From Chiloscyllium plagiosum (lineage: Eukaryota), in assembly GCF_004010195.1 (NCBI RefSeq), contig NC_057752.1, forward strand, positions 4,406,590 through 4,470,589: 64,000 nucleotides of DNA, given 5' to 3'. Every line of letters starts with the position of its first letter. Position 1 is the stretch's first letter. The notes under the pieces were generated by a model. The model searched no databases, had not been told where the DNA came from, and was given only the letters and a program-made list of their open reading frames with translations. Below, one piece after another: positions 21,238 to 64,000 of the stretch. The translations under genes and the position numbers were made by a program.

Positions 21238-21709
21238 CTATAAACCCAATTCCAAACCCTCCAGCTCCTCCTCCAGCAGTTTTCGGCGGCTCAGCTTGTC
21301 CAGCTGCTCTTTGGTCGCCTGTTTAATCTCACCAGAGTCTAGTTTTTGCTGCAGTTCATCAATTTGGCGCAGTTTCTTTTTAAGATTTTTTACCTTCTTT
21401 GCCTTCTCTACTCCATCGTGATCACCTTGCAACGCAACAGCCTGAGAGTTCGGACTGCTACCACCGCCGCCAATGGTGGTTTTCTGCAATGTTTGACTCA
21501 GCTCATCGGCCTCGGCGGTGCCGTCACTTTCCTGCTGCTGTTTGCGCTTCTCTTTGCGCTTGAGGTTGCGTTTAGCTGACTTGGATAACCCAGCCAGCTC
21601 TCCGTCGTGCTTTGACTGTTGCTGCTTGCTTTTGGCGGTTTCGTCTGGGTTAAGGCCAGGTGGCAGGTCGGGTTTGCTTTTGAAAAACTTCACATACTTG
21701 TTTTCGTAC
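21238..21709 (-). CDS. PYM1: PYM1 (partner of Y14-Mago, WIBG) coding exon 3 (last)
   Basis: Acceptor gtgtgcag|[20 protein letters not shown]...[15 protein letters not shown]...[56 protein letters not shown]; 472 nt, phase matches exon 2. Confidence 0.97.
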
Positions 21710-23099
21710 CTGCACACAACAAATACAGATAATAACAGGCCATGCGAAGTGGGATACACAATCAGACCACGTTATCACAAACAAGTTTATTTTTTTGATT
21801 TTCTCTTTTCCTGATTCTTGCTGAGATACTACTTCATGTACATTAGTCACCTTCTGGTATCTCTCACTCAAGTGACTGCTCTGTGCCTGAACTAAGTGTG
21901 CCAACCATACAGGGAATTAAGAGACAAACCCGAGCCTGTCATCCTCATCTGACGTTCAAGTATATTACTGCCATATCAATTTCAAGACCTCCTCCTCCCC
22001 CAACACCATTTTTCTCATTCAAATTTGTTGAAGCAGTCATGCTTGAAAGTGACTGACCCATTGGTATAATGCTTCTAATGCTTTCATAATATGTGGGTCG
22101 CTTGCAAGTTTAACATTTATTCCCCATCCCTAAATGCTCGAGAAAGAGTGCACTGTCAGGGCCAAAGTCTACATTCAAGATCCATAATAAAACATACTGC
22201 ATGTTCTGGATAACATGTCCTCCTGCCTTGACGGAGAATACTTTTATCCTTCAGCAGTGTGGTGACACCGATGAATATGTAGAATCAGGCCCGGGTGTAA
22301 TGCCCTGGCAGCTAAACAGCTATTGACACTGAGAAACGACAAAGAATAGCCACTTGGGATGGGAGGCTGAGAATCACCTGATGAGCTAGATCCCATTCAA
22401 ATTAGAGGCTGCAAAGAGGGTATCTGGGGGAAAGAGAAGAAAAAGGAGAACTAATTTACACGGGCAGCAGAGGAGAGGGGTTTTACCTGCAGCAGGCACA
22501 GCCAGCCTTCAGTAGATATAACAGCCAGTGTACAACACACTTACACATGGAAAAAGATCTCAATTCCTGCACATCATCTGGGATAACGGTGCAACTAAAG
22601 TAACTGACAGAGATACCCCTCAAATTTGACTCTGGTTATTGGGAACACAGTACTATTTAATGTTAACAGCCAATATAATTTCTCCTATCTATGTATAAAA
22701 AATGGCCTTTTACTGGGCAGTTTTAAGTGTGGCCATGACTGTCAAGGAATATGGAAATAAACTCCTTTTTGAGCCGCCATTTGTGAAAGGAGTGTGAATT
22801 ATCCATTAACATCCCTCAGAAATTGCAGGTTAGTTACAAAAGAAAATGCAGCTGATTATGCCCCAGCCTGGAGATGGTAAAGTGTAAATGAGCCACTTTG
22901 CTGCTGCTTGTTTGAACCACATCACCTAAAGCAGTGAAAATTAGTTGAAATCAGTCAATCTGACATGTTCTCTTGCAACAGCTATTTGGCAGTTTGCAGA
23001 AAATCCCAAAATCTAGAATACCATGAGACAGTATCTTAAAACACACTTGTATTTAGGTTAAAAAAAGCAAAATAGCACAACATAAGATTTTACTATCTT

Positions 23100-31049: not shown

Positions 31050-31760
31050 TATGAAGCGAATTTGTTGAACGCGCCAAGAAACCTTGTGAGCATCAGAACA
31101 TTTCAATTCATCATTTAAAGAGAACAAGATTCATCAACTCGAGTTTACGAGTGTGATTTGGTATTGTTTTTGCTCTAGGCCACAAATGCTGCCTCGGATT
31201 TTCCCGACTATTTAGGGCGGCAGGCGCTCTGGTAAAGCTCATAACGAATGCGGCCGCAGGACTTTAGCGATTTAAGCAAAAAACAAAGGAATCAACGGTG
31301 AATATTTGAAACGGTGACTGCCTTCGGGAGTGCCGCCGACCGGGATCGGGGTAAAGATTTCGCTGCCTTTGGCGCCTAGGAACAGGGGGAAAAAAGCGCA
31401 CTCACCCGTCTCGTCCGTCACATAGGCCGCCATGATAGACCAGCCGGAAATTGCGCCCGTCTCCCCTACCATGGCGGGCAGTGAATCACTGCGCCGAGAA
31501 AATCATGAGGAAAATCTAGCTTTGTTTTCTTAAAAATATCGAGTTCTGAAAGATTAGAGGCGGAAGAAGAAAACGCGAATACTCTATTTTGTCCATATAT
31601 TCTCACCCCCACCTCGCTCTCTCCTTCAACGTTTGCCCTGATTGTGTCGCTGTTTCCGCAGGCCACAGGCTTCAGCCCGCGCAGTCTCGCTCAATTTTGA
31701 AGCTCAATAAGTGACCTACTTCACTCCATCTTACTCTTCGATCATAAATTCTCCCACCCC
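31050..31760 (-). promoter_or_regulatory. PYM1: CpG-island promoter / first exon region of PYM1
   Basis: Marked CpG enrichment against a CpG-depleted background; ETS-like CCGGAA (31444) and GCGGAAG (31560) and YY1-like GCCGCCAT around the start codon. Confidence 0.8.
31406..31433 (-). CDS. PYM1: PYM1 coding exon 1
   Basis: atcATGGCG (strong Kozak), MAAYVTDET+G then donor GTGAGT. 28+94+472 = 594 nt = 197 aa + stop. Confidence 0.92.
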
Positions 31761-32254
31761 CTACGTTCAAATTGCCTTTGTCGCTTATACCACCTTTCAC
31801 ATTTAAAAAAAAACTGGGGGAGGGGATTTCCTACCAGATTCGGCAGCAGGAACAGCCTCCATAGCAGCCCTGGAAAAAGACGATTTGAATCACGCCACTA
31901 GGGTGAGACTGGGTGTGGCTCAGTGTCATCAGAACAAGAGCCAACTGAATATCCTTCTTCAGAGGCGGGTCCCCTTCATAAAACACTAATCTGTCAGCAA
32001 ACTGAAACCTGCATGAACTGTTAACACACATCCTTAAATCAGGAAATTGTTTTTTTTAAAACGTTCATCGTAATGAAGACATTCTACTCCTGCAGGATCC
32101 AACAACAAGGCCCAGATAATGAAGGACTAAAACAAAGAACTGCGCGTACTAGAAATCTGAAACAAAAACAAAAATTGCTGAAGAAACTCAGCAAGTTCTC
32201 TCCACAGATAACGAAGGAAGTCTCCTTCTGAACTTGTGGAAACCAGGGGTTTAG

Positions 32255-50584: not shown

Positions 50585-50834
50585 CCGAGTGGTTTATTTG
50601 ATAGCACACTAGCAGGTGAAAGAGGTGCTGTGACTTCTGCTTCAGCACTCTGGTTACTACTGGAACCTCCAACTGTTCTCTTTGTCCAGGCATTTTCTTT
50701 AGGTGGAGGGGCAGGTACAATCTTAAGTGGAATCTGGTCTGGTTTAGTTGATTTAGACACTGGTGACTGTGGCTCCTCCTCCTTGTTGAACATATCATTG
50801 TCCAATGACTTCTCACTCTCTCTCCGAACTGTAG
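50585..50834 (-). CDS. EIF4B: EIF4B coding exon
   Basis: ATVRRESEKSLDNDMFNKEEEPQSP...PLKIVPAPPPKENAWTKR...NKPLG; donor GG|gtaaag. Acceptor is AAG (exon start 50834) or CAG (exon start 50828). Confidence 0.95.
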
Positions 50835-52058
50835 CTTGATTAGATAGAAAATAATTTATTTTAGTAATACAAGCTTGTACCAAAAAGCTTGACGCTAATC
50901 TTTATGAACTCCATAAATATGGATGGTGTTCAGAATGTTCATTTTTAATACTAAGTGAAAAATTACTCCACAAACCTACAACCTTCCTAATAATTGGCAA
51001 TCAACATGCTTTACAACATATTAAATTTTCTGTTTTAACTGAAACAGCATGATGGTGGTAGAGAAAACAAAAGTAAATCACGTCAGGAGATGAAGATCAT
51101 GCTCTGTGGAATCAAATTTACTGCACATAGTTTTCTCAGGATATGGATAGACAAAACATTTTTATTTCAAGAGGAAGCACATTCATCTTTTCTCCCATAT
51201 ATGTTTTCACTGGACAATTTAAACAAGGACTTCTCATTACACACACACCAACAAATATTAGAGACAGGGTTCTACCATTTTCCAGCAATATTGGGGACAA
51301 GCAATTCTGAGCTTTAGTGTGTTAATGAAGGATCCATTGCACGTAGTCTTTGCACATCAACAAAAAGAACTGTCATATTTATGTCTCTATCAAAGTAAAA
51401 CACATGATGGCCGTGAGATGTTATAGAGTAGGATCGCCTTCACAAAACAATCCGTCACAAAAGCCGAAGCTTTACCTATGTGGCTTTGCAATTGCATTCT
51501 TCTATCTTTGTAGTCCCAAAACAATTAGTAAGCATGTACAAGAAAAACAGAAGATCAGTTTTGGCTTCAGATAACAAAATATTAACATTAGCTTACAAAA
51601 TTGAAGCAGTTGTCCTGTGCAGATCATATTAGACATTATAAGGACAGCCATTTACCAGTTTTGTTTTTCACTACAATCAATGATGTGGTGAAGTGTACAG
51701 TTCTTTATGACTTAAAAGGTTAATGAAAATGATTAAGCTAACTAACTGGGTGAAAGTGACACACATTGGATAGTTGCCAAACTACTGGGAGGTTAATCAC
51801 GTAGTAATGTTTGACAAATGTAAACTAAACAGAAAACTTGCCACATGGAACCATTTCTCCAGTTTTGCACTACAGTGGGCAGATTTTCAATTTTGTAAAG
51901 TAGCAAACCTGGCGAACACTTTTAAAAAAGCACATCAATACATTAGCTGTACATTCGCTTGAGAACTACCAATCTTCTTAACAAGCTTAAAAACTGTAAA
52001 ACGCTCAATGTTTATCCTAATAACGTTTTGAATAGTCTGTGTAAACATTAAGTCTTAC

Positions 52059-56409: not shown

Positions 56410-56595
56410 CTCTATCTTCCTGCCTCATTTCATCTCTTGAACCATAGTCACTTCTCCGTTCATCTCTTCTATCAAAGCGGTCAAAGCCATCACTGTAGCG
56501 GTCACTATAACGATCACCACCACCTCTGAAATCATCACTCCGCTTGTCATCATAATTATCTCTTCTGAAGCCACTGCCAAACACACGCCGGGAGC
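56410..56595 (-). CDS. EIF4B: EIF4B coding exon (DRYG region)
   Basis: ttttctag|GC...G|gtaact; 186 nt, SRRVFGSGFRRDNYDDKRSDDFRGGGDRYSDRY...QEDR. Confidence 0.95.
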
Positions 56596-57070: not shown

Positions 57071-58866
57071 AATTCACTTATGAAAGCAAAAAACACCTTT
57101 ATACTCACTAACATAACCAACACAATTTGTTAATTCACTGTCCTCAGTGAACCTTATTTATTTTTCATTAATCTCAGTAGAATATACATTTCTGCAGAAT
57201 GCCTAATTTGCAGGAAAATTCTAAGCATTGATCACATTTACACAATCTGCTACACTTGTGGAATAAATAGCACCCAATATTTCAAAATATTGTATATTCC
57301 CTTATACTGTAAAAAGGATACTGTCCCAAGAAATGTTTAAAAAAAAGTTGAGATGTTAAGGGGTTAACAGTTACTGCTGAGTAATCAGTCGAGCAATTAC
57401 AATGACATGCACCAAGCCAGATGGCATATCCAGATTCTCTTTAATCAATAGGAGTATTTTGTGAACAAGAGTATATTGATAAACAGTAGCAATCTCAACA
57501 ATAGAGTGCTACACTCCTGCACTAAGTTAGCAATATATTACAACATTGGTCAGAATTTCCCCAGTATGTTAAAAACATCCACTGGCTAGAGTGTATTTTT
57601 CTTTTTAAAATCATAGGAGAATGGACTTCCGTCAAATCAGATATTTCTATGCAGTTCACACCATATGAGGACTGAAAATTAACCTTCCCACCTCCAGACA
57701 GCCAAACATTCACAGGATAGTAGAAAGCTTCTCTCTCATGCTCTAAGATACAAGACTAGCCTGAACAAAGACTCAGGGAATATTGTTTTGTTTATAAATA
57801 TTCTTGGCGTAGAACCTTAAAGAACCCCAAAGGTGCATTCAAGCTCCCTGCTCGAATTATACCATTTCCTTTTGTTTGCGCGGATTTTTCAGATTCAAAA
57901 ACGAAAAACAGATAGAAAGTCTAGCTAAAAATAAGACCTAAAATCTGTACTAGTCTCTCCCAAAACTCATTCAGAACTGCAAGGCCTGGCTCTGAAAGTT
58001 AAATGAAAGGCCAACCTCTTTCTCAATATAAAAAGAGCGAAAAAAAAACATCATCTGTGGCAAAACTTTTAAGACATTGTGACGGGAAGCATGGTTAACA
58101 GTGCTGACAGTACAACAAAACGGATTTCCGAAGTTAATACAAGTGACTTCAAGAAAAGATCATGCAACTTATGGGGATGCTGAAAGGGACTTTTGTGAAC
58201 AAAAACTAAACACACATATCCAAATTATGAAAGGAAACTCTTGCCAATGTATCTACTGTAAATAGCCTATAGCTAAAAATTAATAAAATTAAATTCAAAT
58301 GGGAGAAAAAAAAAAAATCACGTGGTCTGGTCTGTACCCACATTCATATTCCAATGGCCAGTGGGTTTTTAGAGCAGTGTAGATTGGAGTTGCATGTCAA
58401 CACCATGCAGAATACCTGACACAGCAGAGTCAGTGGGATTTGCCTGGGAAATTGAGACTTCTGATGGACAATTCCCCTGCGCCCCCCCACCCCTCCCCCC
58501 CAAACAACCAAATCACCCGTCTGGAACCCTACCCATTGACACACACATTTCCTCAGTCACTGTCAAAAGGTCCTCTGGGACCTTGTAACTCCTGAAGTAT
58601 GTGCCACCAAGTGTCATTAAGGAAAGGGACACATCTTGGCCTGCAGCACTACCCTCATGCTGAGTGGATTGGGTCCTAATTTCTTCTAATGGACACATTC
58701 AAAACAGGCCAGACTTGGAATCTTGGCCAGAAAAATTGATGACAGGTAGGTGGGCTGTTTTAAAGATAATTACCATTGAATGAATCTGTTCCAACAGTAT
58801 AGCCATACTATTGCTTTCATAAGTTTTGAAAAGTACATATCGCAAACTGCACTTCGAAATCCAATA

Positions 58867-59025
58867 CAGAGGAAACTCTATTATCCAAAAGGACACGGGC
58901 AGGAAGTATTTCGTTCAGTTAGTGGAATGCCGAATAACAGTTAGACACGCACTGGGACCTTGCGATCTTGCTCGGATGATCCGAAGTTTGGTTAATCGAA
59001 TGCCAGATAAATCGAGGTTCCTCTG
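58867..59025. mobile_element. Tc1/mariner (Tigger/pogo-type) MITE, 159 bp
   Basis: TA|CAGAGGAAACTCTATTATCC ... GATAAATCGAGGTTCCTCTG|TA: terminal inverted repeats flanked by TA duplications. Confidence 0.75.
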
Positions 59026-59269
59026 TAGAGAGCAACCTGTTTTTGAGTACTGCAATAAATTAGTAACTCAGACAAACCTTTCAATGCTTGGAAAAACTCA
59101 AAAGGTGAACAAAGGCAAGACTTGTACTGGTAATGATAGGGCTCAAAGCATCTTTCCTTTAAAATTTTCAAAAACACAGGTTGCAGCTTGCTTTGCTGCA
59201 CTCCTGGGTCTTAATGTAATGCACTCAAGAGTGCTTGAAAAATGATTATTTATCAGCACTGACTATAAT

Positions 59270-60422
59270 CAGTAAAGTTAGATCACATGGGATTCAGGGA
59301 GAGCTTGCCAATTGGATACAAAATTTGTTTGACAGTCGAAGAGAGAAGGTTGTTTGTCGGACTGGAGGCTTGTGACCAGCGGTGTTCTGCACGAATTAGG
59401 GCTGGGTCAACTGTTTCCCATTTATATAAACAATTTGGATGATAATTCAGAAAGCATGATTAGTAAGTTTGCAGATGGCACCAAAATTGATGGTATAGTA
59501 ATGTGAAGAAGATTATTTCAGATGATGACGGGGGGGAAGGAAGTGTCCTGGGTGGGATGCAATGCAGAGGGTCAGTGTGGACTCAATGGTCTGAAGCTCC
59601 TGCCTCCATATTGTACGGATTTTAGGATTATACGAATTGGGGTTTAGTTTGGATAGATCAGAGGTGTTGCATTTTGGTAAGGTGAACAAAGGCAAGACTT
59701 GTACTGGTAATGATAGAGCTCTGATAGTGTTGTTGAACAGAGAAATCTGGAGATGAAGGTACATAGTTAGATAGCTAGTTCATTGAAAGTTGCATCACAG
59801 GTAGACTGTATGGTAAAGGTAGCATTTGGCATGCTTGCCTTCATTGTTCAGATAATTGAGAATGAAACATAGTGTTGCGATTGTACAGGACATTGGTGAG
59901 GCCACTTTTGGAGGACACATACAGTTCTGGTCACCCTGCTATAGAAACTGATATCATTAAAGCAGAGAGGGTGCAGAAAAGATTTACAAGGATGTTACCA
60001 GGACTGGACGGTTTGAGTTATAAGGACAGGCTGGGACTTTTTCCCCCTGGAGTGTAGGAGGTTGAGGGGTGACCTCTTAGAGGTTTTATAAAATCATAAT
60101 GGGCATTGATACGGTAAATAGCAAGATCTTTTCCCTGAGATAGTTCAAAACTAGAGCGCATAATTTTAAAAATGGAGAGGAGAAAGATTTTAAAAAGGGA
60201 CAATGTTTTCACACAGACTGCACCTGTGCATTGAAATGCCAGAGGAAGTGGTAGATGCAGGTACAGTTACAACATTCAAAAGACATTTAGATCGGCACAT
60301 GAACAGGAAAGGTTTAGAGGGATAGTGGTCAAACGCAGGCAAATGGAACTAGTTCAGTTTGGAAAACTTAGTCAGCACGGACCAGTTGGACTGAAGGATC
60401 TGTTTCTGTGCTGTCTGACTAT
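59270..60422 (+). mobile_element. CR1 RT-to-3' fragment
   Basis: agtaagtttgcagatggcacc (SKFADGT), LRLYRTLVRPLLE, ERVQKRFTRMLPGL, 3' UTR. Confidence 0.85.
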
Positions 60423-61062
60423 CTGGTTCATAAATAGGAAACCCATTTGCTTAAGGTAATACAAAAGCAAATAATAGGCATAGAGAAAAGTACAGCACAG
60501 AACAGGCCCTTTGGCCCACGATGTTGTGCTTAAACAAAATTAGCCAATTTACACAGATTGCTTAACATCAAAAAATTAAGTGCATTGCTTCTTTAGCACA
60601 GAACTGACAAAATGATGCAGTATTCTAGTCAGAAGGCATTGCTAGTTCCACTGCTGGAACTGACCACATGTAACTATACCTGACAAAGCATTTAACAGAA
60701 GAACCAACAATACAAAATTGAAAATTTGAGTCCTTTTCAAAGATATATATATATATAAAACAATAATTTACAATATAGAAACTTCTGCTGACATTCAACA
60801 TTGTTAAGCAGAGTGGGATGCTGAGATTTTTCCTAAAGATTTTGACTAGCATTTCCAGTGATATTAATAAGCAATCAAAGTTAATTGGCACAATCCTAAT
60901 TTAGACTGCTTGCACGTTTATGCTCAAATTAAATACCCTAAACAATGAAGGTGATTGCTTTTCAATATTTATTCATCACTGTGCATCCAGTGATTCACAA
61001 AGTACTGGGAAGGCAGGTGCTTCACTGGCTACGCTATAGCTGTTAAGCATTAGTGAACATAC

Positions 61063-61161
61063 CTCTGTCATACCCACGATCCCTGAAACCATCATCCCTG
61101 TATCTGTCTCCATCTCGACGAAGACCATCCCGGTCACGGGACTCGTAACGGTCCCTAGTTC
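61063..61161 (-). CDS. EIF4B: EIF4B coding exon (start of DRYG region); upstream exons lie outside the window
   Basis: gttttgcag|GA...G|gtatgt; 99 nt, TRDRYESRDRDGLRRDGDRYRDDGFRDRGYDR; phase 1 at both ends. Confidence 0.9.
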
Positions 61162-61914
61162 CTGCAAAACACCGTACCAGAAATGTTAAGCATTACAAGA
61201 AATCATACAACCAAAATAATGCACACCTTTAAAATGAAAAAAAAATCCTCCAAACTGTATGCGCTACATGCAACAACACACTTGTGTTAAACACACATTC
61301 GTGAAGTAGGTGATTGACAGTAGTAGTACTAATAAGGGTGAGCTTCACATTGAAAATGGGAAAACATTGCTAGCGCTGTGAGCAGCCGGGTCCTATTTTA
61401 TATCATACATTTTTGAATAATTTTAAAATTTGTTTTAGCAGACTAACAGAAAACAAACCAAGGTACTTTATAAAATGAAGCATGCACCCAAGGGTGGCGA
61501 GGTGAGAAAGAGAAAAGGAGAGGATAATCTAACAGATTCTGAAATAAAGCCACAGAGATATTCTTTCAAGAGAATTGTTCAGAGGCAGTTCCAAAAAGCC
61601 AAACAACACAGTAATGATGATACTTTGAAAAGATGCAGAGAGCTAAACACTAAACACACACAAAAAGGCCAAAAGAAATGCAGATGCTGGAAATCAGAAA
61701 CAAAAACAGAAATTACAAAATAAAAACAGTCGTGATGATGGTGGATATTGTTGCCAATCATAAAAGGTGCTGTTGAGAAATAAATAATTATCATTGAAGT
61801 CAGACTTGGCTTTGGCCAGGGTAGTCTCAACGGTGAAAGTAGGCCTGAAACTCAACTGGATGAAAGCAAACAATGGAAATGCTGAGTTTTAATATATTTA
61901 CTGCTAGATTAGGA

Positions 61915-62215
61915 AGTGGCAGTGGTCTAGTGGTACCACTAGACTAATAATCCAGGCTAACGATCTGGGGACATGATTTCAAATCCACCATTTTAAATAG
62001 TGAAATTTCAATTTAACAGAAATATGGTATTAGAAGCTAGACTAATGGCAAACCCATTGTTGATTGTTATAAATACCCATCTCCTTCACCAATATCCTTC
62101 AGGGAAGGAGACCAGCCTATGACGACTCCAGATACACAATAAAGAGTGCCTTCTGAAATGGCCCAGTCATTCAGTTCCAGGGTAACAAATGCCAGCTGAC
62201 ACCCACATCCCATTC
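61915..62215 (+). mobile_element. Decayed Deu-SINE (SacSINE1-like)
   Basis: tRNA-like head (gtggtctagtggta...ttcaaatcc), Deu-like tccttcagggaagga...gactccaga, tail cacccacatccc. Confidence 0.55.
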
Positions 62216-63686
62216 AAGGTCAAGGGTGCCTGAAGGAAAAGGACTATTAACTGTCACCTAAAATTGAGTCCAGAGTGGAAGTCAATCGCCCAGACATTAA
62301 AAGGATTTGTGCATCAGGAATTAATAAGTTTGCTATAAGTTTTCTCAAACTGTGAAGGAAAACGTACAGCAGCGTCACACACTTGCATCACTCATGTCAC
62401 CTTCAGTTGATCCAGACTCAGCAGCATATTGTTTCAAATCCTCTTGATTACAAAAGACTTTTTCACAGTTGTAAGAAACCAACTGTAATCTTGACATTTT
62501 GTTCGAATGTTTCAGGGTTTTAGAAAGCATTTACACACAAAAGGCAGCAAAGTGGAGTTGATCAGATCAACCATAATCTCACCAAATGGCATAGCAGACT
62601 CAACGGACTGAATGACCTGCTTCTGTTCCTATATTGCTAGTATTTTCCTGATGGGTTTCTCAGAAGGAGCAGAAAAGACGTCCTCCCAGACCAAGCCATC
62701 ACACATGTTGAAATTTAGCCAACACATACTTCAAGTTTGCAAACTCTGTACTGTTCTGACATTTTGAATGTTGAAATGTACATCACATTTTTCCTGCTAC
62801 AGAGAATAGTACTCCCTTAGCAGGGCACTGGAACTTTATTCTCTACTTCCAACACATCTTTAGTTCTTAACTCTTCATTACCCTTTCACTAATGCCATGA
62901 TACTCCACTCACCTAGCATCATTAAAGAAATGTTGCCAATTGTCCGTCTGAAATATCACTAACATATTTATGCAGATGCTTCAATCTAAGTTCTGTTGAG
63001 CACTGCCGTGACATAACTTTTTAAACAAGATGACACATGGTGAAAAACATTAAAAGCTTCGCAGAATTATACGGCAGCGATTTATTTTTCTGCTAATAAT
63101 TCTCAACATCCAGCAGATTTTAAGTGACAGCAGAATCAAAAGGCTGAATTAATAACATTGCCAATTTGTTACCTTAGCTATACTTCATAATATTCTTTTA
63201 TTTGGAAAAGGCTTTAAAATCCAAGAACATCATACACAAAGTTTGTGACTTGAAAGGACATCTATAAGCAGTAAATTAAAATTTTGATAACAATTAACTT
63301 CTGAAGTACAGTAAAGCCAAACTTCATCCAAGGGGGAGGGAAAGGTTATCCAGAACCAGAAGAGTATGCTATTTTTAGATTGGTTAGATTTTTGTTTTGT
63401 AAAATGTCTATATCCTTCAGCTATAGATCTTTTCCCCCATTGCCTTCTCACCTTCTTTGCAAACAGTATTTGCTGGTGCTGACAAAATAAAAAAGCACAA
63501 GTCAAGGTGAGTGATGTTAGAGGCTGCAAATGTATGAAAAGCTCCCAAGCCACAGTCAGGTAATGCTCCCTCACCTACACCCAGGTCCAAATCAGAATGT
63601 TTCTTTTGCACAAGTTTAATTTTCCACACTAGCCTTCAGTATACCTTTGGTGTGAAGCTGCATTGTGCATACGGGCTGACGCTTAC

Positions 63687-63889
63687 CTGCAATTTCACTC
63701 ACGACTCCACACAACAGGAGAGGGGGCGGGGTGATGGTGTCGAGATAGAGCGAGCTCGAGAGAGAAAGCAGAGCGAGCTCGAGAGAGAAAGCGAGTGAAA
63801 GAGGAGAAAAGGAAAGACGAGAGAGATCTAGCTCTTCTGATGCCCAACACTACAGGAGAAAGGACAGCACGCTAAACCATCGCCTTAAC
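63687..63889 (-). other. EIF4B: Candidate alternative (poison) cassette exon in an EIF4B intron
   Basis: Donor CAG|GTAAGC after 63687; acceptors tttacag| (exon start 63889) or tcctttctcctgtag| (exon start 63849); CpG- and CU-rich; introduces stops in the required frame. Confidence 0.5.
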
Positions 63890-64000
63890 CTGTAAAGCCA
63901 TTAAATAATCTTATGAACTCACTGTCCCCAAACGAATCTTCCATCCTTCTTAATGGATAATCATCGTTGCTATTACTTGATGGCCTAGCTCTCCAATCAG

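Follow-up and report, generated by a model that had tools for sequence, protein, structure and literature searches.

Known systems of unproductive splicing

Poison cassette exons of the SR and hnRNP genes are highly conserved and have spliceable introns on both sides. Another layout is that of RPL10A/rpl-1 (L10ARE), a translation-machinery gene in which a productive upstream donor and an unproductive downstream donor, the latter shown to be in use, enclose a 39-nt element whose conservation extends from worms to vertebrates and to which the product of the gene itself binds, with NMD as the outcome (PMC4937301). Another study describes non-conserved cryptic exons and exon extensions that PTBP1/2 repress through CU repeats, some of them exonic, the tracts lying mostly upstream of the acceptor and the events being defined by their appearance on PTBP loss (PMC5959245). 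For the duplicated coding exons 4a and 4b of OGDH, both of which are used, branch points less than about 50 nt from the donor enforce mutually exclusive choice (PMC7969005).

The segment analysed here (63660-63900) lies behind exon 6 of EIF4B in the shark Chiloscyllium plagiosum and shares features with each of these systems. As in the SR and hnRNP cassettes, the stops are in frame with the upstream exon and far above the last junction, whereas EIF4B has an upstream gap of 33 or 73 nt, and no deep conservation emerged from one teleost and three amniote-type sequences. The likeness to RPL10A consists of a translation-machinery gene, a productive upstream and a potentially unproductive downstream donor, a candidate element in between and a predicted NMD outcome; the candidate element at EIF4B, however, is a low-complexity C/U tract. 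With the PTBP-repressed exons and extensions, the locus has in common C/U repeats in or beside a latent exon, no clear conservation and no sighting in normal RNA, but the EIF4B tract is degenerate and CpG-rich. Branch candidates at most 50 nt from the upstream donor recall the OGDH pair, whereas the EIF4B candidate has no relation to exon 6, contains stop codons and has not been seen in use.

The class of mechanism is well known, and the arrangement of splice sites at EIF4B is real but unproven, of known type, and was misdrawn as a cassette by the sequence-only reading. No published EIF4B event of this type was found in the literature on EIF4B with splicing or NMD, a coverage outside which most subscription papers lie, and EIF4B was not found in the supplementary files of PMC6547761 (one file), PMC5378362 (one) and PMC13247117 (nine).

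The EIF4B gene and its junctions

In the window, the whole 64-kb stretch of DNA that was analysed, a cartilaginous-fish eif4b gene lies on the minus strand, with an 80-residue exon up to 100% identical to named eIF4B proteins. Ten exons were placed from 63998 down to 44663 by tblastn with a 628-residue shark eIF4B; their numbers (6, 7 and so on) are those we take them to have by homology. Exon 6 is about 45 codons long on the same homology, and intron 6 measures only 2.76 kb.

Four RNA runs (X1, X2, X7 and X8) were aligned on 60900-64000, as Logan contigs, which drop rare forms, or as reads. Splicing from 63923 to 61161 is constitutive, the joint being present at a depth of 47.4 in X1 and 74.2 in X2 and in 2 reads of X7; these were the only informative reads of X7, and X8 had 0 reads and so provided no test. 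The segment belongs to the start of EIF4B intron 6 and is not a free exon. A free cassette with an upstream exon beyond view was rejected, as exon 6 is within the window and ends at 63923; the sequence-only reading had missed this exon, which leaves gaps of 33 and 73 nt before its two proposed exon starts. Its assignment of the gene to EIF4B and of phase 1 to the exon beginning at 61161 agrees with both the protein map and the sequence.

Several other sites of alternative splicing were observed along the gene. The exons at 56410-56595 and 61063-61161 (minus strand) of the DRYG region both run from phase 1 to phase 1 and are divisible by three in length. Among the annotated catshark isoforms, exon 7 is skipped in P0003 and P0179 (2 of the 68 cartilaginous-fish cluster proteins) and exon 8 in P0002, so that the DRYG region is, to judge from these annotations, varied in frame. 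An optional 30-nt in-frame exon with an AAG acceptor is located at 51476-51505 (minus strand), and its peptide occurs in 18 of the 68 cluster proteins, so its alternative use is common to sharks and rays. Two acceptor AGs 6 nt apart precede exon 11 (50828-50834, minus strand) and may lie behind isoform pairs that differ by two residues.

Two donors and the read-through stop

The features at the start of intron 6 are collected in Table 1. Pairing of U1 with the donor at 63687 (-11.0 kcal/mol) is better than for all 10 true donors scored (-5.2 to -9.6 kcal/mol), and an intronic decoy at 62913 pairs better still (-11.7 kcal/mol). The 63687 motif by itself is within chance expectation, because seven donor 9-mers with at most one mismatch occur in the 18,021 nt of EIF4B introns, about one per 2.6 kb, three of them in intron 6. 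Besides 63687, two strong donor-like sites of intron 6 lie at 62904-62915 and 63443-63454 (minus strand), with no joints among those listed.

Table 1. Features of the EIF4B exon 6 to exon 7 region, in window coordinates
Feature	Position	Strand	Basis
EIF4B exon 6, 3' part, constitutive, ends in phase 1	63923..64000	-	tblastn (63998-63924 match residues 205-229 of a named shark eIF4B); X1, X2 and X7 splice from it to 61161
Donor in use, ACA/GTGAGTTC, weak U1 pairing	63915..63922	-	joint ends; duplex -5.7 kcal/mol
Acceptor-like AG 'A', at which the 203-nt form would begin, 33 nt behind the exon-6 donor and so near that the two could not pair	63890..63891	-	sequence; length limits of PMC4463651 and PMC11291888
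In-frame TAA, 12 codons past exon 6 on read-through, 198 nt before candidate latent donor	63885..63887	-	translation
Acceptor-like AG 'B' with pyrimidine tract, start of 163-nt form, would close a 73-nt intron	63850..63851	-	sequence
C/U-rich tract, 92/111 pyrimidines, between the two donors	63716..63826	-	base counts
Perfect two-copy 23-nt tandem duplicate, 4 of 13 CpGs inside	63747..63792	.	repeat search
TGA closing the frame of the 163-nt form, 8 nt before candidate latent donor	63695..63697	-	translation
Candidate latent donor CAG/GTAAGC, exon end would be 63687	63681..63689	-	U1 duplex -11.0 kcal/mol; X1 contig unspliced across
EIF4B exon 7, 99 nt, first of the DRYG type, in phase 1 at both ends	61063..61161	-	protein map and RNA joint

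The donors at 63923 and 63687 are 236 nt apart and in register with a stop between them, which is the layout of an alternative-donor AS-NMD switch. Choice of the 63687 donor is predicted to lengthen exon 6 by 236 nt, to bring in the TAA after 12 codons and to make the transcript an NMD target. The 50-nt rule for NMD is set out in PMC3446288, and the stop precedes a later junction by more than 50 nt, as in a poison exon. Nine exon junctions follow both the read-through stop and the cassette stop.

Most of the elements named by the sequence-only reading are present: the near-consensus donor after 63687, the two acceptor AGs of the 203-nt and 163-nt exons, the long CU-rich body, and the TAA (63887-63885) and TGA (63697-63695) ahead of nine junctions. 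Its prediction of NMD is right if the 63687 donor is used, and its cassette model is largely wrong.

Acceptors and the cassette question

In human, introns seldom fall below a threshold of about 65 nt, although a few of 37-65 nt are known (PMC4463651), and a donor-to-branch distance below 50-55 nt impairs splicing, the minimum reported being 46 nt (PMC11291888). If these human limits are applied to the shark, the 203-nt form cannot be spliced in as a cassette after exon 6 because the gap is only 33 nt, and the 163-nt form, with its 73-nt intron, is borderline, at the steric limit. The sole adenosine between +44 and +71 of the 73-nt interval is at +50 (63873), 23 nt upstream of acceptor B. The spliceable introns that flank a poison cassette on both sides are thus missing for one of the two exon forms proposed and borderline for the other.

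The 163-nt form has an open frame of 54 codons; its coding use was rejected on 0 matches among 244 candidate proteins, which is weak evidence. A truncated RRM-only protein, also suggested from the sequence, was likewise rejected, the five matches among 19 short candidates ending at other places.

Composition, repeats and fold of the segment

Thirteen CpGs were counted in 63660-63900, in line with the dozen or so first reported, whereas the window averages 2.8 per 240 nt; at least 12 are found in 1.5% of sliding windows. With 11 CpGs, the first 241-nt window of intron 6 was joint top of 71 non-overlapping EIF4B intron windows (mean 2.4), the other window with 11 being inside a dispersed repeat. 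The count for the segment is 11 when the 23-nt duplicate is counted once. One X1 contig differs from the window at 63767, within the duplicate, and the duplicate together with this possible variant suggests a recent change, while the retention of CpGs outside it suggests constraint. The C/U tract is degenerate, with no pure dinucleotide repeat, and is CpG-rich; one other comparable tract occurs within the 64-kb window.

A dispersed-repeat origin was rejected, upholding the description of the island as non-TE: the segment has no other match in the window at E<=1e-3, and contig depth on it was 4.2, whereas a repeat fragment of intron 6 (85% likeness) reached about 10,000; the check covered the 64-kb window and contig depth. 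A structured RNA, such as a snoRNA or similar, was rejected on 0 Rfam matches and a fold z of 0.63. Pairing of the C/U tract with exon 7 was the best of 327 pre-mRNA windows, yet 10 of 100 shuffles equalled it; this was put down to composition and the candidate was rejected.

Elsewhere in the window, intron 7 of EIF4B contains a CpG-rich insert with inverted ends (about 58860-59025), which resembles a small DNA-transposon remnant, and a nearby 43-nt stretch near 59102-59144 recurs at 59679-59721. A second gene lies downstream on the minus strand (about 21241-21720 and 31250-31820), with a CpG-rich first-exon region near 31430. Its long exon had no Pfam match and only a weak PDB match to eIF2A, and presumably resembles PYM1/WIBG.

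RNA over the segment

Unspliced RNA covers the C/U tract. A single contig, from X1 (63634-63836, depth 4.2), is listed over the segment; it runs unspliced across the 63687 donor and 53 nt beyond it, without a link to exon 6, and other intron contigs have depths of 2.7-3.2. X2 and X7 had no depth over the segment, and in X1 none was seen between about 63837 and 63921. Among the joints listed in the four runs, none went to 63687, 63849 or 63889, a low-power result since NMD targets are scarce. The junction reads predicted by the sequence-only reading, from 63687 to 61161 and from the upstream exon to 63889 or 63849, are accordingly absent from these listed joints.

Comparison across species

No insert after exon 6 was annotated in any of the 67 cartilaginous-fish isoforms that contain this exon (68 cluster proteins), in annotation that seldom lists NMD products. 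A scan of metagenomes for related loci gave one true locus, from a teleost (L001), among 177 stretches. Further scans gave no true locus, and one match from them (L002) was rejected as spurious and bacterial. The teleost locus shares the exon 6 end, and its exon 5 ends in phase 1. The 202 nt of its intron that were compared, which stop short of +236, have no C/U tract and no similarity to the shark intron, 36 of 150 shuffles being equal. Read-through meets a TAA at +36 to +38 in both the shark (63885-63922) and the teleost (1781-1818), a shared position that is probably due to chance, given the lack of similarity in the stretch between.

A search with the read-through peptide led to three amniote-type genomic read-throughs (P0207, P0208 and P0209). 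P0207 resembles the shark intron from +9 to +35, with 18 of 20,000 shuffles equal when anchored to the donor (p about 0.001), and its best-case nucleotide match is 20 of 24 nt (7 of 3,000 shuffles equal). Without the anchor, 13 of 150 shuffles were equal (0.09), nothing is similar beyond +44, and P0207 had been picked by a search whose query contained the read-through peptide. P0208, P0209 and the teleost locus, three of the four comparison sequences, had no resemblance to the shark read-through. The resemblance of P0207 lies outside both the C/U tract and the 63687 donor and serves as a lead only.

Competing explanations

The reading that we prefer, at a probability of roughly 0.45, is that the donor at 63687, next to a C/U tract, is latent and normally goes unused. 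Exon 6 ends at the weak donor 63923, with the stronger-looking donor 236 nt further on and the low-complexity tract between them, the second donor being seldom or never used. Its silence might have two causes: the extended exon of about 370 nt may exceed an exon-size limit, and C/U repeats inside the extension can recruit repressors of the PTBP type, for which they are candidate binding sites. The arrangement would then work like a repressed cryptic extension and not like an evolved feedback switch. The latent donor is supported by the intron-like depth (4.2) of the read-through contig, the absence of a joint to 63687 among those listed, the unlike teleost intron and the unlike sequence of two of the three amniote-type peptides. 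The retained CpGs and the resemblance of P0207 at +9 to +35 speak against it, and a weak donor followed by a strong one could reflect selection just as readily as silencing.

These last points are also what could be said for an evolved alternative-5'-splice-site NMD switch, in which the tract would bind a regulator (eIF4B itself or a C/U binder), splicing would shift to 63687 and NMD would tune eIF4B, a reading that we regard as possible but doubtful. It accounts for the weak upstream donor, the strong downstream donor and the stop in between, and the conserved RPL10A element (PMC4937301) sits between two alternative donors in the same way. Mouse Eif4b is on a gene-level list, without coordinates, of more than 2,000 genes that have raised PTC junctions found solely in Upf2-null liver (PMC3446288), and tethered EIF4B promoted inclusion of a reporter exon, a result that its authors suspected to be a false positive (PMC11389820). 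Such a switch is opposed by the lack of a 63687 joint among those listed in RNA data of low power, and the P0207 signal that could support it fades once unanchored, ends by +44, came from a query that included the peptide and is matched by blanks in three of four comparisons. It is unlikely that the segment holds an exon that brings its own acceptor, whether acceptor B after a 73-nt mini-intron or A or B joined to the exon-5 donor as a poison exon exclusive with exon 6. Acceptor B has a good pyrimidine tract and the branch candidate 23 nt upstream, the short donor-to-branch distance is of the kind that enforces exclusive exons at OGDH (PMC7969005), the P0207 resemblance ends at acceptor A, and both stops would apply if exon 5 ends in phase 1 as in the teleost. 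Against it, the 50-nt distance falls within the constrained range of PMC11291888, X1 depth stops short of this stretch (about 63837-63921), no listed joint ends at 63889 or 63849, and the 54-codon frame was without matches.

The C/U tract might also act without alternative splicing, for example by strengthening the weak exon-6 donor or by keeping unspliced pre-mRNA in the nucleus, which appears improbable. Its place about 95-205 nt behind the weak donor and the unspliced RNA that covers it are consistent with such a role, but the depth of 4.2 is near that of other parts of the intron, which indicates no marked retention. The set of 3,150 high-coverage introns of PMC4281565 includes two of mouse Eif4b, but these lie on either side of a 213-nt exon and probably do not correspond to this intron. 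TGCAG/GTAAGC might serve in recursive splicing or close an in-frame microexon of 18 nt (63704-63687), with the C/U tract as a distant pyrimidine tract, but this is very improbable. An acceptor-like CAG does directly precede the strong donor; however, the 28 nt ahead of this CAG consist largely of purines and already contain two AGs, the tract itself is broken by two more AGs, the intron is only of modest length (2.76 kb), and the microexon peptide occurs in none of the proteins compared. Even taken together, these last two proposals are unlikely.

Implications for eIF4B

Self-control of eIF4B through a splice switch behind exon 6, by a second donor or an exclusive poison exon, that is part-conserved from sharks to amniotes and cuts the mRNA between RRM and DRYG, is improbable on the evidence above. 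If the 63687 donor is latent, it would be an ordinary intronic decoy. If a regulated switch were true, eIF4B would join ribosomal proteins such as RPL10A, its level buffered by unproductive splicing.
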